Shown here: positions 1-36,803 of the stretch, in pieces
Layout: each line of letters opens with the position of its first letter
How positions within the stretch are numbered: position 1 is the first letter of the stretch
Assembly (NCBI GenBank): GCA_026989495.1
Contig: JALSJE010000067.1
Span: forward strand, 282 to 64,281
DNA length: 64,000 nucleotides
Origin: Gammaproteobacteria bacterium
Lineage (GTDB): Bacteria > Pseudomonadota > Gammaproteobacteria > S144-34
Reading direction: 5' to 3'
Translations under genes and position numbers: made by a program
Notes under the pieces: generated by a model
What the model was told of the DNA's origin: nothing
The model's database searches: none
The model's input: the letters and a program-made list of their open reading frames with translations, nothing else

Positions 1-848
1 CCGGATGCGCCGGCGCGCGCCCCATTCCGGGCCACCCCGTCCGGCGGGGGAACGTCGGCGCGCTCCACCTGGACGTCCGCGGCGCCGGCCCGCGGCCCGG
101 GGCCCCGCCCGGGCGCGGGCGGGACCGGCCCCGCGACGGCCTCCCCTGCGGCGGCCCCGGCGGGGGGCGCCTCGGCGGCAGGCCGCGCGCCGGCATGCGG
201 CGCCGGACGCTGCGTTCCCTGCCACCACAGCGCGGCGGCGCCGGCGAGCAGGGCCGCGAGGACGATGGATGCGAGCACGGCCAGGCGGGCCGTGGGCCTC
301 AGGCGCCGCGGGCCCGCCGCCCGCCGCGGAGCAGGCGCCGTGGAAGCGGGCGGCGGCGCGAGGTCGGCCCGCCGGCAACGGAAGCGCAGCCGCACCTCGC
401 CGAGCGTGATCTCGTCGCCGTCGGCAAGGAGCGTCCGCGGCACGCGCTGGCCGTTGACCCGCACCCCGTTGAGGCTGCCGAGATCCTCGATGGCGAAGCC
501 GCCGCCCACCCGCTCGATGCGGGCATGGCGGCGGGAGACGCTGCGGTCGCGCTCGCGCCAGTGGCAGCCCTCGCCCCGGCCCAGGAGGAAAGGCTCCGAC
601 CCTTCCAGGTCGAGGCGCCGCCCGTCGGGCGCCTCGAGCCAGGCCGCGAGACCGGGCACCTCGCCCGGCGTGAGGAGCCGCGTCGGCTCGCCCGCGAGCG
701 GGGCGGACAGGGCCTCGGCCGCTTCCCGACCGGCGGCCTGGCCCAGCGCCACCGAGGCGGCGCCCAGGGGCGGCGTGGCCGCGCCCGCGGCCGGCGCCCC
801 GGCGGCATGCGGCGGCGGCGGGAGCGCGTCCTGCATCCGCGCGGCCAT
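1..848 (-). CDS. FHA domain-containing membrane protein (partial; 3' end lies beyond the window start)
   Basis: Not in the ORF track because the minus-strand frame runs off the window. Manual translation from the ATG at 848 gives MAARMQDALPPPP...EPFLLGRGEGCHWRERDRSVSRRHARIERVGGGFAIEDLGSLNGVRVNGQRVP...EITLGEVRLRF. This is a canonical FHA pattern (GR...C...D..VSRRHA, SxNG). It is followed by a predicted TM helix (LAVLASIVLAALLAGAAALWW) and an Ala/Pro-rich periplasmic tail. The ATG overlaps the stop of the downstream DUF192 gene. Confidence 0.6.
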   Translation of the reverse strand, partial: MAARMQDALPPPPHAAGAPAAGAATPPLGAASVALGQAAGREAAEALSAPLAGEPTRLLTPGEVPGLAAWLEAPDGRRLDLEGSEPFLLGRGEGCHWRERDRSVSRRHARIERVGGGFAIEDLGSLNGVRVNGQRVPRTLLADGDEITLGEVRLRFRCRRADLAPPPASTAPAPRRAAGPRRLRPTARLAVLASIVLAALLAGAAALWWQGTQRPAPHAGARPAAEAPPAGAAAGEAVAGPVPPAPGRGPGPRAGAADVQVERADVPPPDGVARNGARAGAS

Positions 849-2218: not shown

Positions 2219-3077
2219 CGATGCGCACGATCCTCCGAAGCATGAGCGCCCCGGCCACGTACATGAGCGCCAGCACGACCAGCACGGCCAGGCCGATGCG
2301 GGTGGTGTAGAGGACGGCCACGTCCTCGGGGCGGGTGAGGTGGAACCAGGCGGCGATGGCGAAGGGGAGCCCCGCCACCAGCCAGCCCTGCATGCGCCCC
2401 ATGGCGGTGAGCGCGTCGATCTTGCCCTCCAGGCGGGCGGTTTCGCGCAGGGTCTCGGCGAGGGCGTCGAGCGTGTCGGCGAGGTTGCCGCCCACGGCGC
2501 GGGCGATGCCGATCGCGGCGTTCATGAGGTCGATCTCGCGTCGCCCGAGCCGGCGCGCCATGGCCTCGAGCGCCTCCTCGAGGGGGCGGCCCAGGCGGTA
2601 CTCGGCCAGCACGAGGGCGATCTCCTGGGAGAGCGGCGCGGGGTGGCGCGCCGCGATCTGCTCGAGGCCGCGCAGGACGTTGCTGCCGCCGCGCAGGCTC
2701 CCGGCCAGCGCCGTGAGCGCGTCCGGTAGCTGGCGCACGATGCGGCGCGCCCGCCGCGCGCGCAGGCGGGCCACCACGAGGCGCGGCGCCACCAGCGCGG
2801 CGACGGCGGCCGCGAGCCCGGCCGCGGGTCCGGCCGCCCAGGCGGCGAGCGCCCCGAGGGCGAGCGCGGCGGCGGCGGTGAGCGCGAGCAGCAGGCGCGG
2901 GTCGAGATAGACGAAGGCCTCGCGCAGACCGCCCACCACCTGGCGGCGGAAGGCGGCCGAGTAGAGCGCGCCGCCGCGCAGGAGGAAGCGCGCCGCGGCC
3001 GCGAAGCCGAGCGCGCCGGCGAGCCCGCTCGCGAGCAGCAGCAGGGGGACGGCGCCCCCTTCCGCCACGCCGCTCAC
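2211..3077 (-). CDS. tadB: Tad/Flp pilus assembly inner-membrane protein TadB
   Basis: 288 aa, T2SSF-family platform protein. Its start overlaps the tadA stop by 4 nt (ATGA). Confidence 0.8.
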   Translation of the reverse strand: MSGVAEGGAVPLLLLASGLAGALGFAAAARFLLRGGALYSAAFRRQVVGGLREAFVYLDPRLLLALTAAAALALGALAAWAAGPAAGLAAAVAALVAPRLVVARLRARRARRIVRQLPDALTALAGSLRGGSNVLRGLEQIAARHPAPLSQEIALVLAEYRLGRPLEEALEAMARRLGRREIDLMNAAIGIARAVGGNLADTLDALAETLRETARLEGKIDALTAMGRMQGWLVAGLPFAIAAWFHLTRPEDVAVLYTTRIGLAVLVVLALMYVAGALMLRRIVRIDV

Positions 3078-4727: not shown

Positions 4728-6086
4728 TCAGTCCATCAGCCGGAAGCGCACCGCCTGCAGCCCCGCCCGGTCGAGCTCGCGGTAGCGGCGGATGCCCTCG
4801 CGGTTGTGCGCGCTGCGGGCGTCGACGATGCGCGGCGTGAGCAGCACGAGCAGCTCGGTCTCGTCGTCGCGGAACCTGCGCGACTTGAACAGCTCGCCGA
4901 GGACCGGCAGGTGCCCCAGCCCCGGGAGCTTGGTCACCGCCTTGCTGCGGCTGTTCCTGAGCAGACCGGAGATCACGAGCGTCTGGCCACGGCCCAGGTT
5001 GACCTCGGTGGTCGTGCGCCGTGTGAGGAAGGCCGGGAAGTCGCCCTTGGTGTTCTGCTCGTCGATGTCGCTCACTTCCACAGTGAGCTGGGTGGCGACG
5101 TAGCCGGCTGGATCGACGTCCGGCTCCACGATGAGCCGGATGCCATACTGCTTGTAGACCACGTCCTGCAGCCCCAGCCCCGTGGTCACGACGATCGGCA
5201 CCTCGCCGCCGGCAAGGAACTCGGCCTTGCCGCCGCTGCGGCAGACGAGCCGCGGGTTGGCGAGCTGACGGGCGTAGCCATGGGTCTCGAGCAGGCGCAG
5301 CCGGCTCTCGATGAGCGAATCCCAGCCGAAGAACGACTTCGTCGTCTCGTAGCCGAGCGGCGCGGTCACGCCGAAGGCGCCACCGGGAGGCGGGCGGAAG
5401 GCGGCGTTGCCCTGGAAGGTGCCGATGATGCCGAAACGCGGCCCGGCGTAGTCGCCAGCTACCCGGGCGCCGTTCCGCAGCCACTCGATACCGATCGTGC
5501 GCGACAGGTTGCGGCTGACCTCGAGCACCCGGGCGTCGAACTCGACCATGGCGCGCAGCGGGACGCGCGGCGGGGCGACCTCGTTCACCACCGTGCCCGC
5601 GTGCTCGCGCGCCAGCGTCTCGATGCGCGCGTGGTCCTCCTCGCGCAGGGCCGCGCCCTCGAGGATCACCTTGCCGCCGGCCACGCGCGCGCGCACGCCC
5701 TCGATGTCGCCGATGCGCGCGCGCACCTCCTCCAGCACGGCCTCCGGCGCGGGCGGCGTGACCTCGACGAGGTAGGCCGCCCGCTCCCTGCCCCGCACCC
5801 ACACGCGCAGGTCCGTGAGGCCGGGCTTGCGGCCGATGAGGAGCACCTGGCCGGCGTCCTCGAGCACCTTGACGTCCAGCACGTGCCCGTCGCCCACGGC
5901 CACGCGGTCCACGCCGGGGTGGCGGAGCAGGCGCGTCTGCCCGGCGGGCAGGGCGATGCGGCCGGCATAGCGCGGCTGCGCCTGGCCGGGCGGCGCCGCG
6001 GCCGCGGCGGGCGGCGCGGCGGCCCGGACCGGCATGGCCAGCGCCGCGGCGAGCAGGCAGGCGGCCAGCGGGGCCGGGGCGCGCAT
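4728..6086 (-). CDS. cpaC: Flp pilus secretin CpaC/RcpA
   Basis: 452 aa with a signal peptide, an N-terminal BON-like region and a C-terminal secretin domain (...VISGLLRNSRSKAVTKLPGLGHLPVLGELFKSR...). Confidence 0.85.
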   Translation of the reverse strand: MRAPAPLAACLLAAALAMPVRAAAPPAAAAAPPGQAQPRYAGRIALPAGQTRLLRHPGVDRVAVGDGHVLDVKVLEDAGQVLLIGRKPGLTDLRVWVRGRERAAYLVEVTPPAPEAVLEEVRARIGDIEGVRARVAGGKVILEGAALREEDHARIETLAREHAGTVVNEVAPPRVPLRAMVEFDARVLEVSRNLSRTIGIEWLRNGARVAGDYAGPRFGIIGTFQGNAAFRPPPGGAFGVTAPLGYETTKSFFGWDSLIESRLRLLETHGYARQLANPRLVCRSGGKAEFLAGGEVPIVVTTGLGLQDVVYKQYGIRLIVEPDVDPAGYVATQLTVEVSDIDEQNTKGDFPAFLTRRTTTEVNLGRGQTLVISGLLRNSRSKAVTKLPGLGHLPVLGELFKSRRFRDDETELLVLLTPRIVDARSAHNREGIRRYRELDRAGLQAVRFRLMD

Positions 6087-6859
6087 CAGTCCATCCCTCC
6101 GCGAATGATCTCGACCTCCCCGCGGGCACGCACACGCGCGCGGCCGCCGAGCAGGGTCTCGCGCGTGACGGCGCCGAGGCGCAGCGGCGCGTCGTCGGCC
6201 GGGGCGCGCAGCATGGCCGTGAGCTTGCCGATCTCGCGCGCGTGCACGATGCGGGCGGCCTCCTCGGGGGTGACCAGCACGGTGATGGTGCGGTAGCCCT
6301 CGGGCTGCGCGTGGCCGTCGCCGGTGTCGGCGCCCGTGGCCGCCACCTGGACGTCGCGCAGCAGGGGCAGGGTGACGGGGCGGTCGCCGTCCTGGAGGGT
6401 GACGAGGAGGTCGATGCGGTCGCCGGGGCCGAGGAGCCCGGAGAAGGACGAGGTCTCGTCCACGGGGATCGTGAGCGCGCGCCGCCCCTCGCGCACCCGC
6501 GCCGAGAAGCCGCTGGCGCGGCTGCGCGAGAGATGGGCGTGCAGCACGGTCTCGCCGCGCCGGAGCGGAAACAGCAGGCGCCGGCCCTCGACCTCGGCGA
6601 AGGCCTCGGGGCGCATGGCGTCGTGGTGCACGAAGGTGGCGGGCACCTCGCGCACGGCGACGTTGCCCACGCCGAGCGGCGTGCCGGCGGGCAGGTCTTC
6701 GTTGGCCACGAGCACACGCACGGGCCGGCGCCCGGCGTCGAGGCGGGCGCGGTAGGCCTCGATCTCGCCGGCGACATAGCGCTCGGCGAGGAAGGCGGCC
6801 GCCGTGCCCGAGACCAGGGCGCCCGCCACGAGCAGGAGCGTGATGCGGCTCGTCCTCAT
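6086..6859 (-). CDS. cpaB: Flp pilus assembly protein CpaB/RcpC
   Basis: 257 aa. N-terminal TM anchor followed by SAF/CpaB-like domains. Sits in the conserved position between flp and cpaC. Confidence 0.8.
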   Translation of the reverse strand: MRTSRITLLLVAGALVSGTAAAFLAERYVAGEIEAYRARLDAGRRPVRVLVANEDLPAGTPLGVGNVAVREVPATFVHHDAMRPEAFAEVEGRRLLFPLRRGETVLHAHLSRSRASGFSARVREGRRALTIPVDETSSFSGLLGPGDRIDLLVTLQDGDRPVTLPLLRDVQVAATGADTGDGHAQPEGYRTITVLVTPEEAARIVHAREIGKLTAMLRAPADDAPLRLGAVTRETLLGGRARVRARGEVEIIRGGMD

Positions 6860-6880: not shown

Positions 6881-7054
6881 TCAGGGCCTGGCGAGCAGCG
6901 TGAGGAAGCGGCCGAGGTGGCCGCCGAGCGCGTCCACCACGGCCGCGCCCGCCGCGACGGCACCGACGAGCGCGGCGGTCGCGACCAGGTAATGCGCCAG
7001 CGCCGCGCCCCGCGGGCGCGGGCGGCTGCGTGAGCGGTCCGTCTTCGCGTCCAT
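6881..7054 (-). CDS. flp: Flp-family type IVb prepilin (paralog 2; short start chosen)
   Basis: MDAKTDRSRSRPRPRG|AALAHYLVATAALVGAVAAGAAVVDALGGHLGRFLTLLARP. A basic leader ends in G, then four residues, then HY (a variant of the Flp G/XXXXEY motif), then a hydrophobic helix. A GGAGGA RBS sits 6 nt upstream of the ATG at 7054. The track ORF 6881..7081 would use a longer start. Confidence 0.6.
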   Translation of the reverse strand: MDAKTDRSRSRPRPRGAALAHYLVATAALVGAVAAGAAVVDALGGHLGRFLTLLARP

Positions 7055-7067
7055 GGCGTCCTCCCCC

Positions 7068-7775
7068 TCATCGCACGACATGGATCAGCGCGAGGCTCCC
7101 CCGCCGGTGCGGTGCGACGCTGACCTGGCAGAGGCTGCGGCCCCGCTGGAAGGCCTGCTGCACGGCGCCGCGCGCGCGCGCGAGCGAATGCGGCTGCACG
7201 GTCCAGCCCGCCCCGGCCAGCCGCGCGCGGATGCGCTCCAGGGTTGCCTCGGCCCCGTAGGGGCTCTGCAGGGTGAGCGACCAGGCCCGGCGCGGGCCGT
7301 CGAGGCTGTCGAGCCGGTGCAGCACGCGCAGGCCCGCCGGCAGCGGGATGCCGGGCGTCCGCCGGGGCCGCACCGCGTCCGGCCGCAGGCTGATCGTGAG
7401 CACGCCCTCGGCGCCGCGCGCGGTGTCGCGCACGCGCACCGTGCGGTAGTGGCGCCCGTCGCGGTGGCCGATCACGCGCCACGGGCCCTGCCGCTGGCGC
7501 ACGACCTCGCCGCGGCCCAGGCGCGACCAGAGGCGCTCGTACCAGGCGAGCACCGCCTGGGCCGGGGCGTCGGTGCGGAACAGGCGCGCGCTCATGGGCA
7601 GCCCGTTCCAGGCCATGCGCTCGGCGATCCAGCGCGTCTCCATGCCGGGCATGACGCGCATCACCGGCAGCTCGACGGCGAGCGGGTCCTCGAGGGCGGG
7701 CGCGGCCCGAGCGGCGAGCGCCGCCAGCGCGAGCGCGAGGAGAAGGGATCCGCGAGGCCGGCGCGCGGGGCTCAT
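7068..7775 (-). CDS. secreted hypothetical protein of the tad pseudopilin block
   Basis: 235 aa, in-frame part of track ORF 7068..8552 starting at MSPARRPRGSLLLALALAALAARAAP (signal peptide). Its ATG overlaps the tadE-like stop (ATGA). No recognisable domain. Confidence 0.45.
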   Translation of the reverse strand: MSPARRPRGSLLLALALAALAARAAPALEDPLAVELPVMRVMPGMETRWIAERMAWNGLPMSARLFRTDAPAQAVLAWYERLWSRLGRGEVVRQRQGPWRVIGHRDGRHYRTVRVRDTARGAEGVLTISLRPDAVRPRRTPGIPLPAGLRVLHRLDSLDGPRRAWSLTLQSPYGAEATLERIRARLAGAGWTVQPHSLARARGAVQQAFQRGRSLCQVSVAPHRRGSLALIHVVR

Positions 7776-8563
7776 TCCGTCACCTCGTAGCCTTCGGGCA
7801 GCGCCTGCGCCGGCACGGCCGGCTCGAGCGGCAGGGCGTCCCTCCCTTCCTTGTAGAGCGGGAAGGCGGCGATGACCTTCGCCGGCTTGACGAGCGTCTC
7901 GATCCGCTTCGCCAGCGTCGCCCGGCCCACGCGCCGGCGGAAGGCGGCCTCGCGCGCCGCCGACCAGGCGTCGCCCGCGACCGCGGCCCCCGCCTCGAGC
8001 GTGGCCCCGCCGAAGTCCGGCAGCTCCGGATGGGCCCGCAGGCCCACGCGCAGGCGCGATCCGGCGCGGCCCCGGGCGCCGAGCCCGAGCGGGCGGACGG
8101 GGAAAGGAACGCCGCCCCCGCGGGCGACGGCGTCCACCATCTTCCCCGCGAGGCCGCCGCCGCGAAGGCGCGTCTCGTCCAGGTCCTGCGCGGCGCGCGC
8201 GCCGGGGCTGCCCGCCACCACGTCGCGGCCTGCATGATCCAGCCACACGGGGCTCGCGGTCGGGCCCGCCGTGAGCGGCGCCGACGGATGGCCGAGGACG
8301 GCGGTCTCGACCAGGCGCCGGATCTCGCCGTCGCCGCGCACCGCCGGCCCCTCCCCGAGGCTCCAGTCGGAGGCCCGCTCGGCCCACACCGTCCGTTCCC
8401 ACGCGACGGCGCGCGCGGCCTCGATCGTCTTGTGCTCGGCGTCGAGCCAGGCGCCCAGGAGCGGGACGAGAATCAGGAGCAGCACGAAGAGCCCGCCGGC
8501 CGCCACCAGCTCGGCCAGCGCCTGGCCCGCGCAGCCGCGCCGTCCCCGCCATGCGCCGCTCAC
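7772..8563 (-). CDS. tadE: TadE/TadF-like pseudopilin
   Basis: In-frame part of ORF 7772..8815 starting at GTG 8563 (a GTGA overlap with the upstream stop). Its N-terminus, RRGCAG|QALAELVAAGGLFVLLLILVPLLGAW, matches the TadE-like class III signal (G, four residues, E, hydrophobic helix). Confidence 0.55.
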   Translation of the reverse strand: MSGAWRGRRGCAGQALAELVAAGGLFVLLLILVPLLGAWLDAEHKTIEAARAVAWERTVWAERASDWSLGEGPAVRGDGEIRRLVETAVLGHPSAPLTAGPTASPVWLDHAGRDVVAGSPGARAAQDLDETRLRGGGLAGKMVDAVARGGGVPFPVRPLGLGARGRAGSRLRVGLRAHPELPDFGGATLEAGAAVAGDAWSAAREAAFRRRVGRATLAKRIETLVKPAKVIAAFPLYKEGRDALPLEPAVPAQALPEGYEVTE

Positions 8564-9327
8564 GGGCCGGCCCTCCCCTTGCGGGCGTCCACGGGCTTCG
8601 CGCCGGGCGGCGGCCGCATCCCCTTCGTGTCCACGCAGGCGCCCTCCTCCACGCGCTCGGCGCGCATCTCGTAGGGCCTGTGCGAGGTGGCGCCGGCTCC
8701 CACCTGCTCGATGCGCATGACCAGCGCGACCTGCTGACCGCCCAGCTCGGTCATGCACATCCGGTGGCGCAGGCTGTATGATGCGTCTCCTGTGCTGCCG
8801 GCGAACCACCGGCACGGACGCCCCGCCACCGTGGACACATGCCCGGTCTCTTCGCTATCGAACATCCGGGACGGATCGAGGCCCATCGCGCCGATGGCGG
8901 CGAGCAGCTCCGGCGAGGCCGGGGGATAGCGCTTGACTTCCCCGCTCGCCCCGTAGAAGGCGACGCGCGAGCCGTCGGGCATCCGCCATTCCGTGTAGGA
9001 CTGGGACACGAGCCGCACCTTGGGCCACATCGTGAAGCCCGAGCCCATCCATTCGATCCTGGTCGTGAGCGCCTCGAGACGCAGACGCTCGCGGCCCTCC
9101 ATGAGGACGAGCTCCTGGGTGGCCGGGGTGGACTCGAGGGTCTTGAGGAGCTTCCGGTCCTTGAAGAGGAACGCCAGGAGGGTCTCCGTGGGGCTGAAGA
9201 GCACCGGCTGGGTGCCCGTGTAGGTCACGCGGACCGCCGTGCAGCGCACCTCGGCCCGCGCGGGCGCGAGGGCGGCCGCGGCGAGGGCCGCGAAGGCCAG
9301 GAGCAATACCCTGCGGGCCGCGCTCAT
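8560..9327 (-). CDS. secreted hypothetical protein (tad locus)
   Basis: 255-aa frame reading MSAARRVLLLAFAALAAAALAPARAEVRC..., hidden inside the 806-aa shadow ORF 8560..10980. Signal peptide present. Its ATG at 9327 overlaps the tadG-like stop. No recognisable domain. Confidence 0.45.
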   Translation of the reverse strand: MSAARRVLLLAFAALAAAALAPARAEVRCTAVRVTYTGTQPVLFSPTETLLAFLFKDRKLLKTLESTPATQELVLMEGRERLRLEALTTRIEWMGSGFTMWPKVRLVSQSYTEWRMPDGSRVAFYGASGEVKRYPPASPELLAAIGAMGLDPSRMFDSEETGHVSTVAGRPCRWFAGSTGDASYSLRHRMCMTELGGQQVALVMRIEQVGAGATSHRPYEMRAERVEEGACVDTKGMRPPPGAKPVDARKGRAGP

Positions 9328-10580
9328 CGGGCGAGCCTCACCTCCCAGAAGGGGTTGAACAGGTTGGCGTGCTCGCCCTTGCCCGGCAGGGCGAACAGCG
9401 CGCGGTCGGGCCGGCGGTGGTAGACCTGCGCCCGGGCGAGGGCGCGCAGCGGCGCCGGCGCCGCGCCCGGCACGAGCGCACCCGTCTGCAGGCGGCCCGA
9501 AGGCGGCCGCGATGCGAGCGCGCTCACCCACAGCCGCCGGTCGCCGGGACCGTCCCGGAGCGCGTGGTAGCCCGGCACGCCGGCATAGGCCGGATGCAGG
9601 CCGCGGGCCGAAGCCGAGCCCCGGGCGACCGTGCTCCAGCCCGACCAGCCCTTGAAGCACTTGTCCCACCTCCACCAGCTCACCTGCAGCTCGTCGCTCG
9701 CCCGCCAGTCCATCAGGTCGGCGCCGCCCTGCCGCGTGCGGCCCACCTTGCGCACCCGCACCACGAAGGGCACCTTGACCTTCCAGCCGCGCTCGCCCTC
9801 GATCCACCGGCGCGAGCGGTCGAGGGAGGCCCAGCTCAGGGCGGCGATCCGCCCCCCGTCGCCGGCCGGGCCGTAGCGGCGCACGAAGCCCGCGAGCCGC
9901 GCGCCCTCGGCCGCGAGCGAGGCCGAGATCACGGCGCCCTCGGGGCCCTCCTTCGCGAGCTTCGCGAGCTCGGCGGGGCGGTTGACGTCGATGGCCGGGT
10001 CGTGGCGCCGGGCGATCCCGCGCATGAGGCTGCGCAGGGTGAAGGGCTGCAGCGTGGCGCGGGATGCATACTGCGCCATCAGGTAGAGCCGGTTGAGGCC
10101 GTCCACGGCCAAGAGCGCCATGCTCGCCAGATACTTCGTCACCCCATAGCTTGCCGACACCACCTTGCGCGCCGTGCTGGTGGCGGCGTTGACGCCGGGG
10201 ATCCAGGCCGTGAGGAAGGCGACCCTGTCCACCGAGTCGCGCACGTAGCCGAGCCAGGAGACGTAGCTGACCAGGTGGCCTGCGGCGACGTGGTTGGCCA
10301 CCATGGCGCGGTTGGTGTAGGCCATGAAGTTGAGCTGGCGCGCGACCCACAGGCCGCCGCTCCAGGCGGCCGCGTCGGCGGCGTCCTGGAGCTGGGCGCG
10401 CTCGGCGGTGGCCTGGCCGACGTTGTACATCACGAGCGCGCCCGCAAGCCCCGCGCCCAGCAGCGCCAGCGCCAGCACGAGCACTTGCCCGCGCTGGAGG
10501 CGGCAGGCGGGCGGCGGGACCGGTCGGGCCGACGGGGCGCGTTCGGGCATGGCGCGAAACCCTGGCGACGTCCCTGTCAC
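9324..10580 (-). CDS. tadG: TadG-like Tad-domain pilus assembly protein
   Basis: 418 aa. N-terminus QRGQVLVLALALLGAGLAGALVMYNVGQATAERAQLQDAADAAAW is typical of the TadE/G-like N-terminal domain (PF13400-like) that precedes a large periplasmic region. Confidence 0.55.
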   Translation of the reverse strand: MTGTSPGFRAMPERAPSARPVPPPACRLQRGQVLVLALALLGAGLAGALVMYNVGQATAERAQLQDAADAAAWSGGLWVARQLNFMAYTNRAMVANHVAAGHLVSYVSWLGYVRDSVDRVAFLTAWIPGVNAATSTARKVVSASYGVTKYLASMALLAVDGLNRLYLMAQYASRATLQPFTLRSLMRGIARRHDPAIDVNRPAELAKLAKEGPEGAVISASLAAEGARLAGFVRRYGPAGDGGRIAALSWASLDRSRRWIEGERGWKVKVPFVVRVRKVGRTRQGGADLMDWRASDELQVSWWRWDKCFKGWSGWSTVARGSASARGLHPAYAGVPGYHALRDGPGDRRLWVSALASRPPSGRLQTGALVPGAAPAPLRALARAQVYHRRPDRALFALPGKGEHANLFNPFWEVRLAR

Positions 10581-10618: not shown

Positions 10619-10888
10619 CTACTGCGAGAAGTTCTGCAGGGTCTTCGCCGTGCCGGCGTCGGACTTGGCGTTGCCGGCCGAGGTCTGGGCCGCCGTGGTC
10701 TCCGTCTTGGCCGTGGAGGTGTCGCCGGCGAGCTTGAGGGCCATGGCCGCCATCTGGTGGCGGATCGCGTCGCCGAAGAAGCCGGCCACGGCCACGGTGG
10801 CGACGGCCACCAGCGCGGTGATGACGAGGTACTCGGACATGCCCTGGCCGCGGATGCGGCGGCGATGGGTGCTGGGCTGCTTCCGCAT
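10619..10888 (-). CDS. flp: Flp-family type IVb prepilin (paralog 1) with T/A-rich C-terminal tail
   Basis: MRKQPSTHRRRIRG|QGMSEYLVITALVAVATVAVAGFFGDAIRHQ..., which fits G/XXXXEY. An AGGAGGA RBS lies upstream of the ATG at 10888. The C-terminus TSTAKTETTAAQTSAGNAKSDAGTAKTLQNFSQ is low-complexity. First gene of the minus-strand tad operon. Confidence 0.65.
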   Translation of the reverse strand: MRKQPSTHRRRIRGQGMSEYLVITALVAVATVAVAGFFGDAIRHQMAAMALKLAGDTSTAKTETTAAQTSAGNAKSDAGTAKTLQNFSQ

Positions 10889-11099
10889 GGGGCTTCCTCC
10901 TCTGCTGCCTGCGGCGCGGTGCGGACCGCGCCTTCGTCCATACGGGACGCGAAAGCTACCCAAGGCGTGCCGATGGGCAATTCGAAATTTTTTATGCGCC
11001 ACTCGAAAAACCGGTGTACCAGAAATGAGACACTCGGCCCCGATCACGCGATTCGAGGCATGTGCTGCGGAACCTCAACATCCATTTGCAACTCATTGC

Positions 11100-11260
11100 T
11101 GGAAAGCTTCTTTCAGCGCCACACCCCTGCCGCAGCCGAGCGCGACGTGACGTCAGGCGTCACTTTTTTCATGACGCTCAGCGTCAGTTTTGAAGGGCTT
11201 CGAAGCCACTGAGTGACGCCGCACGTCACCCCCTTTCGGCCCCCTCCCACGGGACGAGCC
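11100..11260. promoter_or_regulatory. Divergent promoter region (flp operon / lnt-like gene) with clustered GTGACG/CGTCAC palindromes
   Basis: A lower-GC 350-bp intergenic region. Contains cgacGTGACGTCAggCGTCACtttttTCATGACGCTCAGCGTCAg ... TGAGTGACGccgcaCGTCACc, and the palindrome GAAAGCTTCTTTC. Confidence 0.3.
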
Positions 11261-11332
11261 GACGAACGGCATTGCCGCGCGTGCCTGCGCGGTGCTACAT
11301 AGCCGCGCGCGCAGCGACGGAGCGCCTGCCGC

Positions 11333-13294
11333 ATGGATGGCACGAGAACCGTGATGGAACCTTTCCGCGCCGGCGCCTGGACGGCGCTCGCGCTCCTGGC
11401 CGCCGCGCTCGCCCTCCCGCCGGCCGGGCTCTGGCCCGCGGCGCCGCTCGCCTGGCTCGCCCTCCTGCACGCCCTCGCGGGCTGCGCCAGGCCCCTGCAT
11501 GCGGCGGCGCTGGGCGCGCTCTTCTGTGGCGGGATCGCGGCGCACGCCTTCCTCGGCGCCCTGAGCTACGGACCCGCCGCCTACGCCGGCGGCGTGACGC
11601 TGCTCGCAGTGCTCGGTGCCGCCTTCGGCGCTTGGGCGGGCCGGGCGCTGACGATGCCCCACACCCCCCTGCGCGCAGCGCTCGCCGTGGCCGGCGCCTG
11701 GACGCTGCTCGAGCTCGTCGCGGTCCACGGATTCGGCGTCCCCTTCCTCGCCGCGGCGACGCTGGACGGCCTCGAGGCGCCGCCGACGCTGCTGCGCTGG
11801 GGCGGACCGCACGCGGTGGGCTTCGTGCTGGCGGCCCTGCCGGCCTGGGCCGTGGCGGGCCACCGCGCCCGTCGCGGCAGCGCCGCGACGCTCGCGGTCC
11901 TCGCGACCGGCGGCATCGCCCTGCTCCTCCTTCCGCCCGGCCCCTCCGTCCCGGAGGGCGCGGACGGCGGGGACCTGAAGGTGGCGGTCGTCCAGACGAC
12001 GCTGCCGGGCTGGCGCTTCCGCGAGCCCGGCCTCGCCGGGGCGCGCCGCCGCTACACGGAGGCCATCGCCGCGGCCGCGCGGCGCGCCGCCTCGGGTGCG
12101 CCCGACCTCGTCGTCTGGCCCGAGCTCGGCTACGCCGGCTATCCGTTCCGCGTGCAGGGCTCGCTGGCGCGCCACCTGCCCCGCGGGACGGCACACCTCA
12201 TCACGGTGCCCGACCTCGACCCCGCCGGCCGCGAGCGGCTCGCCGCCTTCCTCGTCGATGCCGAGGGGCAGGTGCGCGCCGTGCAGGGCAAGTCGCAGCT
12301 CGTGCCCTGGATCGAGCGCGCAGGACCCGCGTCCGCCGCCGCAGCGCCATTGCTGGTGGAGGGGTTACGCCGGCCCGGCGTGCTCATCTGCCTGGAGGGC
12401 ACGCTCCCTCACCGCGTGCGGGCCCTGGCGCGCGCCGGCGCCGGCTGGCTCGTGGTGCCGGCGAGCGACGCCTTCGCGGGACCTTCCTGGCTCGCCCTGC
12501 TGTCGGCAGCGCTGGCCCGGCTGAACGCGGCCGCCGTAGGCCTCCCCCTGGTGCGCGCGGCCAACGGCGGCCCCTCCCTGGTCACCGACGCGTCGGGACG
12601 GATCCGCCGGACGCTTCCGCCCTACGGACCAGGCCTCGTCGAGGCGCGGATCGCGGCAGCCGCTGCGCCATCGCCCTACGCGCGCCTGCCCCTCGAGCCC
12701 GGCTGGCCGCTCGCGGCGCTGGCGGCGCTCGGCATCGTGCGCAACCGCAGGCCTCGCTCCCGCGCGGCGCCACAGCGGACTCTTCCGGCCCTGCCCGCCG
12801 CACTGGGACTGCCGATGGGCCTCATGGTCCTGCTCACCTTCACCCAGACGGAGGCCGCCGGCCGGGCGCTGGCTCGGGCAGGCCTGCCGGCACCGGCGGG
12901 ATACCTCTTCCATGGCCATGCCCGCGCGGCCTGGACGGTGCGGTCGCCGCCGGCCTCCGGAGACCCCTTGCGCGAGGCCTATGCCTTCCTGCTGCGCAGG
13001 TACGGGGTGGACAGTCCGCACCCGCCGACGGGCCGGAAGGCTTCCGGAACCGAAGACGGCTGGCACGGGCTCATGCCCTGGCAGGGCACCCCTGCGGGCT
13101 GGACCGACGCCTTCCTGCCCGCGGTGCTGCGGCTGCGGGACGGGGAAGCCGTCGTCGCCCTGGAGATCGAAGGAAAGGCGGCGCGCGTCTGGCACCCGTC
13201 CCGCGGCGTCATGGACAGGGTGCCGCTGGCCGCGCTCCGCGGACCCGGCCTGGCGCTGGCCACGCGGCCGCGCTGGTGGGACTGGCTCCTCTGA
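11333..13294 (+). CDS. apolipoprotein N-acyltransferase (Lnt)-like CN-hydrolase membrane protein with about 180-aa C-terminal extension
   Basis: 653 aa. N-terminal polytopic TM region, then a CN-hydrolase domain with the Lnt catalytic triad in context: VVWPE (Glu), VQGKSQLVPW (Lys), VLICLEG (Cys). The extra C-terminal domain has no recognisable family. The start could be the ATG at 11354. Confidence 0.7.
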   Translation: MDGTRTVMEPFRAGAWTALALLAAALALPPAGLWPAAPLAWLALLHALAGCARPLHAAALGALFCGGIAAHAFLGALSYGPAAYAGGVTLLAVLGAAFGAWAGRALTMPHTPLRAALAVAGAWTLLELVAVHGFGVPFLAAATLDGLEAPPTLLRWGGPHAVGFVLAALPAWAVAGHRARRGSAATLAVLATGGIALLLLPPGPSVPEGADGGDLKVAVVQTTLPGWRFREPGLAGARRRYTEAIAAAARRAASGAPDLVVWPELGYAGYPFRVQGSLARHLPRGTAHLITVPDLDPAGRERLAAFLVDAEGQVRAVQGKSQLVPWIERAGPASAAAAPLLVEGLRRPGVLICLEGTLPHRVRALARAGAGWLVVPASDAFAGPSWLALLSAALARLNAAAVGLPLVRAANGGPSLVTDASGRIRRTLPPYGPGLVEARIAAAAAPSPYARLPLEPGWPLAALAALGIVRNRRPRSRAAPQRTLPALPAALGLPMGLMVLLTFTQTEAAGRALARAGLPAPAGYLFHGHARAAWTVRSPPASGDPLREAYAFLLRRYGVDSPHPPTGRKASGTEDGWHGLMPWQGTPAGWTDAFLPAVLRLRDGEAVVALEIEGKAARVWHPSRGVMDRVPLAALRGPGLALATRPRWWDWLL

Positions 13295-13342: not shown

Positions 13343-14146
13343 ATGGAGGAATGGGTCTGCTTCAAGACCGGGCGCTACCGGCTGGAGCCGCTGGCGCGAG
13401 GGGGCGTGGCCGACCTCGCCCTGGGCTATCATGAAAGCGACGGGTCGGCCGTCACCTTCAAGTTCCTCAAGCCCCAGCTCGCCCGGGTGCCGCACCTGGT
13501 GGGGCAGCTCCAGCTCGAGTACGCGGTGATGCTGGGCTCCCGGCCCGGGCTCCCCCAGGCGGTCGAATGCGGGATCTACGGAGGACGGCCCTACCTGGCA
13601 TACCGCTACGTCCGCGGCGTCTCCGTCCGGCACCTGCTGGATGCCCTGCACCGCGCCGGCCGCGTGCCCTGCGAGTCCACGGCGCGGCGCATCGTGCATG
13701 GGGCCGCCTGCGCGCTGAACGCGCTGCATCGCGGCCGCCCGCCCGTGGCCCACGGCGACCTCAGCCCGGAAAACGTCATCGTGGGCCGGCGCATGGGGGT
13801 GGCGCTGGTGGACCTGGGATGCGCACGGCGGCTGGACCGCCCGACCGCCGATGCGCCGCTGCTGATGGGCAAGCCGCGCTATCTCTCGCCCGAGCAGGCG
13901 CGCGGCGAGCCCTGGGGCGCCCCGAGCGACGTCTATCAGCTCGGGCTGCTGCTCTACGAGATCGTCACGGGCGAGCCGCTCATCGCGCCCTGGCTGGAGG
14001 TGCCGAGCCCGGCCGAGGCGGCCGCGCCCTCCCTCGAGGCGCTCTCGGCGCTGCCTCCCGCGCTGCGCCTGCTGTGCCGGCGCATGCTCGACCCCGATCC
14101 CGCCGCCCGTCCGGGCGCGGCCGCCGTGGCGCGCGCGCTGCGCTGA
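13343..14146 (+). CDS. Hanks-type serine/threonine protein kinase (kinase domain only)
   Basis: 267 aa with a Gly-rich loop (RGGVADLALGY), an AVTFKFLK lysine, the catalytic loop HGDLSPENVIV, DLG, and YLSPEQ (APE-like). No TM segment or sensor domain. Confidence 0.75.
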   Translation: MEEWVCFKTGRYRLEPLARGGVADLALGYHESDGSAVTFKFLKPQLARVPHLVGQLQLEYAVMLGSRPGLPQAVECGIYGGRPYLAYRYVRGVSVRHLLDALHRAGRVPCESTARRIVHGAACALNALHRGRPPVAHGDLSPENVIVGRRMGVALVDLGCARRLDRPTADAPLLMGKPRYLSPEQARGEPWGAPSDVYQLGLLLYEIVTGEPLIAPWLEVPSPAEAAAPSLEALSALPPALRLLCRRMLDPDPAARPGAAAVARALR

Positions 14147-14152
14147 GCGGCT

Positions 14153-14737
14153 TCAGCCGCCGTAGTAGTCAGGCTCGTTGCCCGGCTTCCACTTGATGTT
14201 GCAGCCGAGGCTCGGCTTCTGGTCCTCGGGGACGGGCCGGCCCTCGAGCAGCGCGTCCACCGCCGCGCGCAGGTCCCTGCCCGTCACCGGCGCGTCGTTG
14301 CGCGGGCGCGCGTCGTCGAACTGGCCGCGATAGACCAGCTTGCGGTCCCTGTCGAAGAGGAAGAAGTCGGGTGTGCAGGCCGCCTTGTAGGCCTTGGCCA
14401 CCTCCTGGGTCTCGTCGAAGAGGTACGGGAAGGTGTAGCCCACCTTCTTGACCTCCTCGATCATCCTTTCCGGGCTGTCGTCGGGATAGTTGGCCACGTC
14501 GTTCGAGTTGATGGCGACGATGGCCAGGCCCTTGCGCTGGTACTCGCGGCCGAACTCGGCCAGCGCATGCTGGATGTGCTTCACGTAGGGGCAGTGGTTG
14601 CAGATGAACATCACCAGCAGCCCCGGGGCGTCCCTGAAGTCGTCGATGGAGACCTCGTGCCCCGTGAGCGGCTCGGGCAGCTTGAAGTACGGAGCCGGCG
14701 TGCCCAGCTCCAGCATGGTGGATTCGGTGCGTGCCAC
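14153..14737 (-). CDS. thioredoxin-fold thiol-disulfide oxidoreductase (AhpC/TSA-like family)
   Basis: 194 aa. Contains a CNHC (CxxC) motif in FICNHCPYVKH within a thioredoxin-like fold. Confidence 0.6.
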   Translation of the reverse strand: MARTESTMLELGTPAPYFKLPEPLTGHEVSIDDFRDAPGLLVMFICNHCPYVKHIQHALAEFGREYQRKGLAIVAINSNDVANYPDDSPERMIEEVKKVGYTFPYLFDETQEVAKAYKAACTPDFFLFDRDRKLVYRGQFDDARPRNDAPVTGRDLRAAVDALLEGRPVPEDQKPSLGCNIKWKPGNEPDYYGG

Positions 14738-14853
14738 TGCGTCTTCCCTCCTGCTCGTGTGGGCCGGTCTGCGGCCGGGGGGCCGCCCCGCGATCGGGCG
14801 CGTATTGTAGCGCGCCTTGCACCGTCCGCTGCCCCGGGCAAGACTGTGCCCCC

Positions 14854-15963
14854 ATGGAGCCGGGGGTTGAAGGCGCGCGGCTGCATGTCGAGCGCGGCGA
14901 TGGCGCCACGCGGCTGCGTGCGCAGGGCCGCTGGACCGTGGACGGCATCGCCGCGCTGGCGCAGGCCCCGGCGCCGGCGCTGCCCGACCGGGGCGAGCTC
15001 GTGCTGGACGGCGGCGCGGTCGAGGCGCTGGACACCGCCGGCGCCTGGCTGCTGTGGCGTCTCATCGGCGGACGGGCGGCGCGGCTCGAGGGCTGGCGCC
15101 CCGGGCAGGCTGCGCTCCTGGAGCTCGTGCGGCGGCATGGCACGGCCTCGGCCCCGCCGCCGGCGCGGCCCGGCCGGCTCGCAAGGCTCGGCGCGCGCGC
15201 GGTACGGCAGGCGCGCGAGGCGGTCTCCCTGGTCTCCTTCGTCGGCGCGGTCACGCTGGAGCTCGCGCGGGCGCTCGCGCGCCCGCGCCGCCTGCGCCTG
15301 CGGCTCGCGCTGGAGGAGGTGCAGCATGCGGGCGTGGAGGCGCTGCCCATCGTCGGGCTGCTCGCCTTCCTCATGGGCATCGTCATCGCCTACCAGGGCG
15401 GCGTGCAGCTGCGCAACTACGGCGCCAACATCTTCGTCGCCGACCTGGTGGGCCTGTCCGTGCTGCGCGAGATCGCCCCCCTCATCACGGCCATCCTGCT
15501 CGCCGGACGCAGCGGATCGGCCTACACGGCCCAGATCGGCACCATGCAGGTGACCGAGGAGATCGACGCCCTGCGCACGCTGGGGCTCTCGCCGCTGGAG
15601 ATCCTGGTGGTGCCGAAGGTGCTGGGGCTGATGCTGGCGCTGCCGCTGCTCACCGTCTATGCCGGGGCGCTGGGCGTGGGCGGAGGCATGATCATGGCCC
15701 AGTGGGTGCTCGAGGTGAGCCCGGCCGCCTTCCTGGAGCGCTTCGAGCAGGCCATCGGCCTCGCCTCCTATCTGGTGGGCGTGGGCAAGGCCCCGGTGTT
15801 CGCGGCCATCATCGCCCTCGTGGGCTGCCACCGCGGCTTCCTCGCCGGCGCCAGCGCCGACAGCGTCGGGCGCCAGACCACCCTCAGCGTGGTGCAGGCG
15901 ATCTTCCTCATCATCGTGGCGGACGCGGCCTTCTCCGTCCTGTTCAGCCGGCTGGGGATATGA
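14854..15963 (+). CDS. mlaE: MlaE-family ABC transporter permease with N-terminal STAS (MlaB-like) domain fusion
   Basis: N-terminal roughly 110 aa (RLHVERGDGATRLRAQGRWTVDGIAAL...LDGGAVEALDTAGAWLLW) resembles a STAS domain. The C-terminal part is MlaE/YrbE permease. The ATG at 14854 was chosen over the upstream Cys-rich start. Confidence 0.75.
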   Translation: MEPGVEGARLHVERGDGATRLRAQGRWTVDGIAALAQAPAPALPDRGELVLDGGAVEALDTAGAWLLWRLIGGRAARLEGWRPGQAALLELVRRHGTASAPPPARPGRLARLGARAVRQAREAVSLVSFVGAVTLELARALARPRRLRLRLALEEVQHAGVEALPIVGLLAFLMGIVIAYQGGVQLRNYGANIFVADLVGLSVLREIAPLITAILLAGRSGSAYTAQIGTMQVTEEIDALRTLGLSPLEILVVPKVLGLMLALPLLTVYAGALGVGGGMIMAQWVLEVSPAAFLERFEQAIGLASYLVGVGKAPVFAAIIALVGCHRGFLAGASADSVGRQTTLSVVQAIFLIIVADAAFSVLFSRLGI

Positions 15964-16748
15964 CGGGCGCAGGCGGCGAGGTCGTGGTCTCCCTGCGCGG
16001 CATCGAGACGCGCTTCGGCAGCCAGCGCGTGCACGCCGGCATCGACCTCGACGTGCGCCGCGGCGAGATCTTCGCGCTCGTGGGCGGAAGCGGCTCCGGC
16101 AAGACCACGCTGCTGCGCGTGATGCTTCTGCTCCACCGTCCCGCGGCCGGTCGGGTGACCCTGCTGGGGCGCGAGGCCGCGCGCATCGGCGGGCACGAGC
16201 TGCCCGCGCTGCGCCGGCGCATGGGCGTGCTCTTCCAGCACGACGCCCTCTTCAGCGGCCTCAGCCTGCTGGACAACGTGCTCGTGCCGCTGCGCGAGCA
16301 CACGCGCCTGCCCCGGGGCTTGATGCGGGAGATCGCCCTGCTCAAGCTTGCGCTCGTGGGCCTGGGGCCCGAAACTGGCCCGCGGCTGCCCGAGGCGCTC
16401 AGCGGCGGCATGCGCAAGCGCGGCGCGCTCGCGCGCGCGCTCGCGCTGGACCCGGAGCTGCTGTTCCTGGACGAGCCGACGGCGGGCCTCGATCCCGTGA
16501 CGGCCGCGGGCTTCGACGAGCTCATCCTGCGGCTGCGCGACAGCCTCGGACTGACGGTGGTGCTGGTGACCCACGACCTCGACACGCTCATGCGCATCGC
16601 CGACCGCGTGGCGCTGCTCGCCGACGGCAGGGTCGCTGCCGTCGGGACCCTGGACGAGGTCCTCGCGAGCGAGGACCCGGCCGCGCGCCGCTTCTTCCAC
16701 GGCCCCCGGGGGCTGGCCGCACGGGAGCGGGCATGGAGCCGCGCCTGA
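15960..16748 (+). CDS. mlaF: MlaF-family ABC transporter ATP-binding protein
   Basis: Walker A GGSGSGKTT, signature LSGGMRKR, Walker B LLFLDEPTAGLD. Its start overlaps the mlaE stop (ATGA). Confidence 0.8.
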   Translation: MTGAGGEVVVSLRGIETRFGSQRVHAGIDLDVRRGEIFALVGGSGSGKTTLLRVMLLLHRPAAGRVTLLGREAARIGGHELPALRRRMGVLFQHDALFSGLSLLDNVLVPLREHTRLPRGLMREIALLKLALVGLGPETGPRLPEALSGGMRKRGALARALALDPELLFLDEPTAGLDPVTAAGFDELILRLRDSLGLTVVLVTHDLDTLMRIADRVALLADGRVAAVGTLDEVLASEDPAARRFFHGPRGLAARERAWSRA

Positions 16749-17674
16749 GCTACACGGCGGTCGGCCTCTTCGTGCTGCTGCTGGCGGCCGCCTTCGTCGG
16801 CGGCGTGCTGTGGCTGTCGTCGGGCACGCTGCGGCGCGACCACGTGATCTATCACATCTACATGTCCGAGTCCGTCTCGGGCCTGAACGTGGACGCCCCG
16901 GTCAAGTACCGCGGCGTGGACGTGGGCCGGGTCCGGGCCATCGAGCTGGTGCCGGACGGCCCGGTGCAGGTGCGCATCGTGGCCGCGATCCGGCGCGACG
17001 TGCCCATCAAGGCCGACACCGTGGCCACCCTGCGCGTGCAGGGGCTGACCGGCATCGCCTACGTGGAGCTCGAGGGGGGGAGCCGCGAGGCTCCGCCCCT
17101 CGAGGCCCTGCCGGGACAGCCGGCACCCGTGATCCCGAGCCGTCCCTCCTTCCTCGCCCGGCTCGACACGCATCTCGACGAGCTCATCGGCAACCTCAAC
17201 CAGGCCGCGCACGGCGTCGCGCGCCTGCTCGACGAGCGAACCCGTGCCCACCTGCGCCATACGCTCGCCAACCTGGAGCGCCTCACGGCCTCGCTCAACG
17301 AGAGCGTGGCGCGCCTCGACCGCGCGCTGGAGGCGGCCGCCCGCACCGCCGACGCCGCCGCGGACGTGGCCGCGCGCGCGGGGCCGGCGCTCGCCCGCAT
17401 CGAGGCCGCGGCCGCCGCGCTCGAGCGCATGGCCGATCGCCTGGGGCGGACCGGCGAGCGCCTGGGCGACGACTACGGGCGGCTCGCCGGCCATCTGCAG
17501 ACGGCCGCCGAGGAGACCCTGCCCGAGGTGCAGCGCGCGATCGCCGATCTGCGCGAGGCGGCCGCCAGCCTGCGGCACTTCGGGCGCGTGCTGGAGCAGG
17601 ACCCGCGGGTGCTGCTGTTCGGCCTGCCCGAGGCCACCCCGGGTCCCGGCGAGGAGGAGGTCCAGCAGCGATGA
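16733..17674 (+). CDS. mlaD: MlaD/MCE-domain protein
   Basis: 313 aa. N-terminal TM anchor followed by an MCE domain (...YRGVDVGRVRAIEL...), then a coiled-coil C-terminal region. Confidence 0.75.
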   Translation: MEPRLSYTAVGLFVLLLAAAFVGGVLWLSSGTLRRDHVIYHIYMSESVSGLNVDAPVKYRGVDVGRVRAIELVPDGPVQVRIVAAIRRDVPIKADTVATLRVQGLTGIAYVELEGGSREAPPLEALPGQPAPVIPSRPSFLARLDTHLDELIGNLNQAAHGVARLLDERTRAHLRHTLANLERLTASLNESVARLDRALEAAARTADAAADVAARAGPALARIEAAAAALERMADRLGRTGERLGDDYGRLAGHLQTAAEETLPEVQRAIADLREAAASLRHFGRVLEQDPRVLLFGLPEATPGPGEEEVQQR

Positions 17675-18444
17675 GGCGCATGCGCGCAAGGTTCTCCGCG
17701 GTGTCCGCCGTGGCACCGGCCTTCCTGGCGCTCCTGCTGCTGGGGGCCTGCACGGGCCTGTCCCAGCGGGCGGTGCATGGAGAGCCGGGCGCGCCCGCGC
17801 GCTTCCTCCTCGCGCCAGCCGTCCCGGCCGAGCCGGAGCGGCCCGGCGCGGGACCCGCCCTCGAGGTCGCGCGCGTGCGGGCGGCAGCAGGCTACGGGAC
17901 CGACGCCATGCTCTACCTGCGCCGCCCGCGCCGGCTCGAGGCCTACGCGCGGGGACGCTGGATGGAGGCGCCCGCGCGCATGCTGCAGCCTGCGCTGGTG
18001 GACGCCCTGGCGGGCTCGGGCCTGTTCCCGGTCGTGGTGCCCGGGCCGGCCTCGGTGCGCGTGCCTCTGCGCCTGGAGACCACGCTGCTGGCCCTGCACC
18101 ACGACCTCACGGGGGCCGTGCCCCAGGTGCGGATCGTGCTGCGGGTGATGCTGGTGGACCGGCACGCGCGGCGCGTGCTCGCCGCCCGGCGCATCGCCGC
18201 CGCCGCCCCGGCCCCGGCCAACGGGGCGGGCGCGATGGCCGACGGCGCCGCCCGCGCCCTCGAGCGGGCGCTCGCGGCGGTGGTGGCCTTCTGCCGCGAG
18301 GTCCTGGCTCAGCCGAAGGCGGTGGCCGACGCGGCGGGCGACACTGCCGCCAGCGCCTCCAGCACCACCTCCGGGTCGGAAGGCCGGCGGCGCGCCTCCT
18401 CCGAGAGCATGCGACGCCAGCGCGCCGCCCCCGGCAGACCCTGA
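17671..18444 (+). CDS. ABC-transport auxiliary lipoprotein (DUF330/COG3218-like)
   Basis: Lipoprotein signal (LALLLLGAC) and the conserved position after the MCE gene. The low-complexity C-terminal tail overlaps the dusA 3' end by about 135 nt on the opposite strand. Confidence 0.55.
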   Translation: MRRMRARFSAVSAVAPAFLALLLLGACTGLSQRAVHGEPGAPARFLLAPAVPAEPERPGAGPALEVARVRAAAGYGTDAMLYLRRPRRLEAYARGRWMEAPARMLQPALVDALAGSGLFPVVVPGPASVRVPLRLETTLLALHHDLTGAVPQVRIVLRVMLVDRHARRVLAARRIAAAAPAPANGAGAMADGAARALERALAAVVAFCREVLAQPKAVADAAGDTAASASSTTSGSEGRRRASSESMRRQRAAPGRP

Positions 18445-30917: not shown

Positions 30918-30918
30918 C

Positions 30919-31753: not shown

Positions 31754-31756
31754 GGC

Positions 31757-33362: not shown

Positions 33363-33381
33363 ACGAGGCCCCTTCTCCCGC

Positions 33382-34392: not shown

Positions 34393-34396
34393 CGCC

Positions 34397-36745: not shown

Positions 36746-36803
36746 CTTCGGTGGCCGGGTTTCGTGCGGCAGACACGCGCTCTGGAACTCGGTGGCCGTG
36801 CGG

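Follow-up and report, generated by a model that had tools for sequence, protein, structure and literature searches.

Apolipoprotein N-acyltransferase (Lnt) is generally regarded as a housekeeping enzyme with a single purpose and as a drug target. In a 64,000-nucleotide (nt) stretch of DNA from a gammaproteobacterium (contig JALSJE010000067.1, assembly GCA_026989495.1; hereafter, the window), a gene of the Lnt type lies at 11333-13294 on the forward strand, divergent from the flp/tad operon of a Tad pilus and followed directly by a kinase gene, an arrangement given in a preliminary description of the locus and confirmed by the neighborhood. This placement raises the question of whether the gene is the organism's housekeeping lnt or a derivative serving the pilus locus. 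From comparisons of sequence and gene order we favor, with moderate confidence, the second answer: the protein would be an accessory, Tad-module-specific acyltransferase derived from Lnt rather than the housekeeping enzyme.

An Lnt-type core with altered surroundings

The gene and the parts of its product are as follows.

11333..13294, + strand: Lnt-like/C39-like fusion protein, 653 amino acids (aa) (open reading frame call, Pfam, NCBIfam, structure matches, alignment with E. coli Lnt)
11333..11962, + strand: polytopic membrane domain, about 7 helices, LNT_N-like, aa 1-210 (hydropathy, Pfam LNT_N)
11963..12682, + strand: periplasmic CN-hydrolase (Nit) domain, aa 211-450 (Pfam, alignment with E. 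coli Lnt)
12122-12124, 12290-12292, 12314-12316 and 12389-12391, + strand: catalytic codons E264, K320, E328 and C353
12698..12844, + strand: transmembrane helix 8 (TM8, aa 456-469), Arg-rich cytoplasmic loop (aa 470-482) and extra helix TM9 (aa 483-504) (hydropathy, positive-inside rule)
12845..13291, + strand: C39-like domain lacking the catalytic Cys and His, about 150 aa (aa 505-653), with its core (aa 547-645) at 12971-13267

Since the window is about 75% GC and the GC content of this frame is 0.91 at third codon positions (GC3) versus 0.62 at second positions (GC2), 11333-13294 is taken as the true coding frame; translation may in fact begin at M8 (11354), in agreement with the N-termini of relatives. 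As in Lnt itself (E. coli b0657; TIGR00546; PDB 5N6H, 5XHQ, 5VRG), the protein combines a polytopic domain, a periplasmic CN-hydrolase domain and a TM8-equivalent helix, and hydropathy gave about seven N-terminal helices plus TM8, in keeping with the polytopic N-terminus described earlier. Pfam CN_hydrolase matched residues 216-441 (38.2 bits, cutoff 23.2), and LNT_N matched weakly (18.5 bits, cutoff 27.1), scoring above cutoff in relatives from loci L012 and L014 (30.2 and 29.6 bits, respectively). Solved Lnt structures matched at E ~3e-10 in a PDB sequence comparison, and the NCBIfam lnt model TIGR00546 gave 109.7 bits (E 1.8e-31), under its equivalog cutoff of 132.9. Identity to E. coli Lnt is only 18-22%.

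The core was compared in ten family members and five canonical Lnts, with E. coli Lnt (b0657) as the numbering reference. The catalytic triad previously read in VVWPE, GKSQLVPW and LICLE is present, and E264, K320, E328 and C353 align on E. coli E267, K335, E343 and C387 with no misalignment. This E, K, E, C set is invariant in all ten members and all five canonical Lnts, as are P147 and G417 (E. coli numbering); at V339 the family has V, I or L, and one canonical Lnt has Asp instead of E389. Because the four residues are unchanged among sequences only 22-35% identical, catalysis has presumably been retained. The complete catalytic set also speaks for a rival explanation, that the protein is the organism's sole housekeeping Lnt, carrying a lineage-specific C-terminal extension and having no functional tie to the tad locus. 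We regard this rival as distinctly unlikely, for reasons that begin with the regions around the catalytic residues.

Between the equivalents of E343 and C387, every family member has a spacer of 24-25 aa (25 aa from E328 to C353 in the window), compared with 43-48 in the canonical five and 40 in the accessory Lnt homologue AatD (see below); about 20 residues of the Lnt lid region are gone. In E. coli Lnt this segment forms helix alpha5-6 and an amphipathic lid loop (E348-Q372) that closes the cavity, and the R352A and F357A/F358A variants are inactive (PMC5500890). R352 and F357/F358 all fall in the segment lost from the family. The E. coli variants F416A, G342A and Y388A do not complement, Y388 serving the second, acceptor step (PMC5500890), and here too the family departs from Lnt: F416 is replaced by Ala in all members, W415 by Tyr or Phe and G342 by I, L or V family-wide, and W148, which is conserved in canonical Lnts, by F, L, V or S. 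In the window protein the changes are G342 to I, Y388 to L, F416 to A and W148 to F, of which Y388 to L is confined to the window lineage.

The TIGR00546 scores likewise separate the family from the housekeeping enzyme, with 109.7 bits for the window protein, 67.6 and 69.4 for the sister lineage and 103.7-157.2 for other lineages, versus 191-307 for canonical Lnts. As this canonical range includes two Lnts from organisms of similarly very high GC, base composition is not the cause of the gap. In addition, the gene has no ybeZYX context within the window; unlike lnt, which typically belongs to a ybeZYX-lnt arrangement, it stands in a tad/kinase locus, and its product adds TM9 and a C39-like domain to the Lnt plan. 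The high-GC Lnts P0005 and P0017 were considered as the canonical lnt of the same organism and rejected, as they come from unrelated samples. We infer that a canonical lnt lies elsewhere in the same genome.

The C-terminal extension

An additional C-terminal domain beginning at about aa 470, with no obvious family, had been described for this protein. The extension is real and under purifying selection (ratio of nonsynonymous to synonymous substitution rates, dN/dS, of 0.41, compared with 0.19-0.26 for the enzyme core), but its boundary lies further on, since TM8 is followed by a cytoplasmic loop (RNRRPRSRAAPQR in the window protein) and TM9 before the domain proper at aa 505-653. The same layout of TM8, Arg/Lys-rich loop, TM9 and a domain of about 150 residues is found in all lineages. 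The C-terminus of Lnt is cytoplasmic and its active site periplasmic; with one extra helix, the added domain should be periplasmic, beside the Nit domain.

The family assignment also changed, although not through the window sequence on its own. The window domain alone had no Pfam match at E<=10 and no match in a PDB sequence search, and a HMMER search of 1.84 billion representatives with a three-sequence profile returned only its own cluster and compositional matches, this profile missing even true relatives that were later recovered. Comparison with HlyB alone by hhalign was not significant (E 0.16 and 0.37), and the top Foldseek match in the PDB for a partly confident model was PCAT1, a weak structural pointer to the C39 peptidases. 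After addition of a second lineage and of a C39 profile built from PDB-verified baits plus database matches, hhalign gave P = 0.003 over 99 columns, a score reached by 0 of 600 shuffles. Pfam PF03412 (Peptidase_C39) then matched five lower-GC members directly (25.5-36.5 bits, cutoff 22), and an 11-sequence family profile aligned with C39 at 96.5% (hhalign; E 7e-10, score 63.4), whereas 200 block shuffles scored 15.4+/-2.8 with a maximum of 25.2. The window domain is connected to these relatives by a hidden Markov model (HMM) of the other lineages, which it matched at 23.2 bits (maximum of 1000 shuffles, 3.3), and by hhalign (95.3%, E 2e-8). On this profile evidence, the C-terminal domain belongs to the Peptidase_C39 family, a membership visible only through the lower-GC relatives.

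The domain is thus of the same family as the C39 domains of ComA and PCAT1 and the C39-like domain (CLD) of HlyB (PF03412; PDB 8HF7, 3K8U, 4RY2, 3ZUA). The nucleophile position (ComA C17) is P, A, S, T or E in the family and never Cys, the His position (ComA H96) is unoccupied, beside a Glu conserved in the motif SGE(T/A)VV, and the Asp position (ComA D112) is H, D or S, mostly Ser. With the Cys and His positions replaced, the domain is catalytically dead and, like the HlyB CLD, which also lacks the catalytic Cys, is expected to bind rather than cleave. It differs from the known C39 domains in that the His is missing as well, in being C-terminal on an Lnt-type enzyme after an extra helix rather than N-terminal on an ATP-binding cassette (ABC) transporter, and in its predicted periplasmic rather than cytoplasmic location. 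A search of the accessible literature library found no paper mentioning Lnt together with C39, and the Lnt-like subfamily is undescribed so far.

A conserved place beside the Tad locus

A word-indexed search of 5.8 billion proteins found full-length relatives in only two clusters, about 56% identical, the remaining matches being canonical Lnts at E ~1e-5. The Lnt-like protein evolves fast and the kinase is better conserved, so the kinase was taken as the search handle. Kinases 38-42% identical marked a second lineage of the same architecture (L012, L013 and L014; 68-69% GC), whose Lnt-like proteins are 664-667 aa long and 33% identical to the window protein. L019 represents a third lineage with the gene, and a metagenome scan with the broadened alignment yielded six further loci, down to 35% GC. 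The family is therefore present in at least nine lineages of 35-75% GC, and all relatives share the tad/kinase context, next to a tad operon of the FHA-CpaF ('class III') type with conserved gene order. Only one member is a named database entry, HHQ42281.1 of the sister lineage ('hypothetical protein [Chromatiales bacterium]'). Two orthologous tad-plus-kinase loci, L015 and L017, have no Lnt-like gene. Both the position, kept over this range of base composition, and the absence from L015 and L017 argue against a housekeeping Lnt. The genes of the window locus are listed below.

2..848, - strand: second FHA-domain membrane protein, 5' part only (the gene continues beyond the window edge)
848-1294, - strand: DUF192
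1298-2218, - strand: TadC
2211-3077, - strand: TadB
3074-4717, - strand: FHA-CpaF ATPase with N-terminal FHA domain
4728-6086, - strand: secretin
6086-6859, - strand: RcpC
6881..7081, - strand: second small Flp-like gene, 66 aa
7068..7775, - strand: u235, secreted 235-aa protein, conserved throughout, whether or not a locus has the Lnt-like gene
7772..8563, - strand: TadE/F-like protein, 263 aa, no Pfam match, kept in all loci
8560..9327, - strand: u255, secreted 255-aa four-Cys protein of no known family
9324..10550, - strand: TadG-like protein, 408 aa (Pfam Tad domain)
10619..10888, - strand: Flp-type pilin, 89 aa, motif RGQGMSEYLVI
10889..11332: intergenic region of lower GC between the divergent flp/tad and Lnt-like/kinase operons, with presumed promoters
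13343..14146, + strand: Hanks-type kinase, kinase domain only, 267 aa, catalytic loop HGDLSPEN

A consensus search of the 10889..11332 region found no sigma-70-like promoter. In the sister lineage, two small genes (88 and 83 aa; L001 9278-9838, - strand) lie between TadG and the Lnt-like gene, and the window counterpart of this stretch is one called pilin gene and a 445-nt spacer of lower GC. The order in L019 differs, with the Lnt-like gene, kinase, u255a, pilin, TadG and u255b following one another on a single strand. The operon adjoining the Lnt-like gene has the FHA-CpaF class III architecture of PMC12019362, a study that describes no linked kinase, second FHA protein, Lnt-like/C39 gene or u255.

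The link between the Lnt-like gene and the kinase is close. A GGAGG ribosome-binding site stands 10 nt 5' of the window kinase, and in most relatives the Lnt-like and kinase reading frames overlap by 4 bp at stop and start; from this arrangement the two genes are read as co-transcribed, and the translational coupling is a further point against a housekeeping Lnt. No ABC exporter is encoded in the Lnt-like gene's operon. The Tad-linked kinases (267-335 aa; the window kinase together with P0037 and P0039-P0043) form one orthologous group, in which HGD(L/V/I)(S/T)(P/A)EN replaces the usual HRDxKxxN catalytic loop: the Arg that normally precedes the catalytic Asp is missing and Ser or Thr stands in for the loop Lys, with the beta3 Lys, the Asp and the D(F/L)G motif retained. 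Together with the two FHA proteins, the group suggests phospho-threonine control of the pilus motor.

This arrangement could also mean that the Lnt-like protein serves mainly to sense signals for the soluble kinase or to anchor it at the membrane: its periplasmic Nit and C39-like domains would bind a ligand or protein, the kinase would phosphorylate a partner that the FHA domains of CpaF and the second FHA protein recognize, and pilus assembly would be gated as a result, with catalysis secondary or absent. Such a role would suit a kinase that itself lacks both a sensor and a membrane segment and whose translation is coupled to that of the Lnt-like protein, the presence of two FHA-domain proteins in the tad operon and a family that, as the dead C39-like domain shows, tolerates pseudo-enzyme domains. 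We nevertheless think it unlikely, as L015 and L017 hold an orthologous kinase beside the same tad operon alone, so that the kinase has no need of the Lnt-like protein; moreover, the invariance of E, K, E and C speaks for catalysis, and the protein exposes no more than very short loops to the cytoplasm.

Rates of change set the Lnt-like gene apart from most of its neighbors. Between the window and the sister lineage L001, identity is 55% for the Lnt-like protein, 46% for u255, 76% for the kinase, 80% for CpaF, 86% for TadB, 93% for AhpC and 98% for the pilin. The 55% for the Lnt-like protein, against 69-98% for neighbors in the close-relative comparison, is not what a housekeeping Lnt would lead one to expect, and u255 is the fastest-evolving gene of the locus.

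In loci carrying the Lnt-like gene, u255 sits between the TadE-like and TadG-like genes, and homologues occur in eight lineages with the enzyme. Of the two loci without it, L015 has no u255 and no room for one between the TadE-like and TadG-like genes, and L017 retains, at the site of the intact gene, a 134-codon remnant (7252-7653, - strand) that covers HMM positions 39-97 only and is missing the Cys-rich half. Homology across lineages is supported by BLASTP (4e-5, 2e-6, 4e-5 and 1e-5) and by one family HMM that recovers all members. The proteins match no Pfam family; they have a Sec-type signal peptide, an aligned N-proximal Cys and three further Cys, and L019 holds two paralogues (2097-2981 and 4943-5782, both + strand). 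The possibility that u255 is a classical lipoprotein was rejected, since only u255a of L019 has a canonical lipobox (PVAG|CSG), most others reading K-T-C, E-V-R-C or similar. On its pattern of occurrence, u255 is the leading candidate for a substrate or partner of the Lnt-like enzyme, an assignment held less firmly than the accessory role itself.

The pilin had been named as another possible target, and its gene is the immediate divergent neighbor in every locus; its periplasmic tail contains several Lys. However, the motif RGQGMSEY(L/I)I(I/V)(T/V)AL(I/V)A is near-invariant over 39-75% GC (L012, L015, L017, L019, L021, L023, L025, L026 and L028), and neither it nor the overall pattern differs between loci that have the enzyme and loci that lack it, so the pilin is unlikely to be a specific substrate. 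With the pilin 98% conserved and the enzyme 55%, there is no co-variation between the two. In addition, the N-terminus of a type IV pilin after prepilin peptidase lies on the cytoplasmic side, at the opposite face from the periplasmic Lnt active site. Acylation of the Flp pilin itself is accordingly the least probable of the readings weighed here. As a separate observation, the Flp pilin is unusually conserved, with 97.5-98.8% identity between lineages in which the other Tad proteins show 69-86%.

Nor need the acceptor be a protein at all. Lnt acyl-enzyme chemistry could in principle serve any amine, and the cavity residues that recognize the lipoprotein acceptor are changed, which would fit an enzyme acting on a lipid or another envelope amine, for example making N-acylated lipids locally around the Tad machine. 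This too we consider highly improbable: to our knowledge, the C39-family domain is a polypeptide-binding module in every characterized case (PCAT1, ComA, HlyB), and the co-occurrence with a secreted protein points to a protein substrate.

Beyond the kinase, an AhpC/redoxin-like gene (14153-14737, - strand) precedes an Mla/Mce-type lipid-transport operon (14731-18165, + strand) encoding a STAS-MlaE permease with N-terminal STAS, an ABC ATPase, MlaD and an auxiliary lipoprotein component. Further along the window are NiFe-hydrogenase-related genes (28787-36898, - strand) for large- and small-subunit-like proteins, an Fe-S protein, a HypE-like maturation protein and HypF.

A probable accessory role and its precedents

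The accessory role is favored because the gene is missing from L015 and L017, evolves fast, has lost Lnt features and holds a fixed position with coupling to the kinase. The idea of an accessory, locus-specific N-acyltransferase, put forward in the preliminary description, is thus supported as far as fixed position, absence from L015 and L017, lost lid, fast rate and u255 co-occurrence go; the suggestion of the pilin as its target is not, the pilin motif being unchanged without the enzyme.

The accompanying premise that lnt is always a single essential gene proved too strong. Second homologues occur in actinobacteria (Streptomyces Lnt2, mycobacterial BCG_2279c and the Lnt-Ppm1 fusion Rv2051c) and show that genes of the Lnt family can undergo duplication, can be dispensable and, as in the present family, can be fused to another domain (PMC3850990). 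They differ in that the partner of Rv2051c is a cytoplasmic polyprenol-phosphate mannose synthase, in the absence of a tad or kinase context and in that BCG_2279c lost the catalytic Cys, which the Lnt-like family keeps. Plasmid-borne lnt homologues are also common (297 plasmid records, especially Roseobacter, Rhodococcus and related plasmids), and Phaeobacter inhibens pP78_b (NZ_CP010631.1; L030) has an unlisted lnt after lspA inside a copper-resistance island. A Phaeobacter plasmid match annotated as an ABC transporter was rejected, as only an lspA-lnt pair in the copper-resistance island was present.

A further second homologue is AatD, an accessory Lnt homologue encoded with the Aat system (enteroaggregative E. 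coli 042, pAA; PMC7943197, PMC7478709). AatD acylates the N-terminus, which is not a cysteine, of a protein exported by Sec and processed by signal peptidase I, its substrates starting with an invariant Gly, and its partner AatP is described as LolC/E-like with no mention of C39 (PMC7943197). For the mechanism proposed below, AatD would be the best functional precedent, in function and not in ancestry. Compared with the family Nit domain it is 15-18% identical, no closer than canonical Lnts, and BLASTP gave E >= 0.2; at 404 aa with its 40-aa spacer, it also has neither the terminal helices nor the C39 domain of the Lnt-like family. Moreover, it works with AatPABC, which is LolCDE/MacAB-like, whereas the Lnt-like family sits with a Tad pilus and a kinase.

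Several observations weigh against an accessory, u255-directed enzyme. Some family members slightly exceed the 132.9 equivalog cutoff (141.6-157.2 bits), and automated annotation would probably name these housekeeping Lnt. That family members reach 132-157 bits, near the cutoff, counts for the housekeeping explanation, as do the known fusion of a mycobacterial Lnt to another domain (Rv2051c) and the finding of no other lnt in the window or any related locus examined; the 332 kb of related DNA examined held neither a second lnt nor ybeZYX. As to u255, only two loci are without the enzyme, which makes the co-occurrence sample small and phylogenetically non-independent, and a rearranged 8-kb locus, L027, shows no u255 in its available DNA. 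Unlike the AatD substrates with their invariant Gly, the predicted mature N-termini of u255 are not Gly and not conserved (KTCP, EVRC, ERC and others), and the conserved N-proximal Cys may simply be in a disulfide. With respect to the C-terminal domain, its periplasmic placement derives from hydropathy and the positive-inside rule only, the C39 domains of ABC transporters sit in the cytoplasm and structure predictions were poor (predicted local distance difference test, pLDDT, 34 and 54).

If the protein is an accessory acyltransferase, its mechanism might run as follows. Cys353 would take an acyl chain from a membrane phospholipid, forming an Lnt-type thioester in an active site that, having no lid, would be exposed to the periplasm. 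On the same side of the membrane, the dead C39-like domain could hold a Sec-exported protein of the Tad locus, as the HlyB C39-like domain holds its client, and the acyl chain would pass to an amine of the held protein. The likeliest target would be u255 after signal-peptidase-I cleavage, as with AatD and CexE/Aap. The kinase would most likely couple the acyltransferase module to the two FHA-domain Tad proteins. The scheme in full, a Tad-linked lipidation without Lgt/Lsp in which a pseudo-C39 domain captures u255, an acyl chain from phospholipid is attached to it and this step is tied to the activity of the pilus motor by way of the kinase and the FHA domains of the two Tad proteins, is offered tentatively, and as a whole it is more doubtful than probable.

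Taken together, the family appears to be a second offshoot of Lnt, unrelated to AatD, without the lid loop and with an extra helix and a dead C39 domain predicted to be on the periplasmic side. Across environmental bacteria of 35-75% GC, its genes are consistently accompanied by those for a kinase, an FHA-regulated Tad pilus and a secreted protein. If the proposed activity is true, it would constitute a new route of protein lipidation and a new use of the C39 fold, beyond ABC exporters and the cytoplasm, and would provide a handle on the control of class III (FHA-CpaF) Tad pili.

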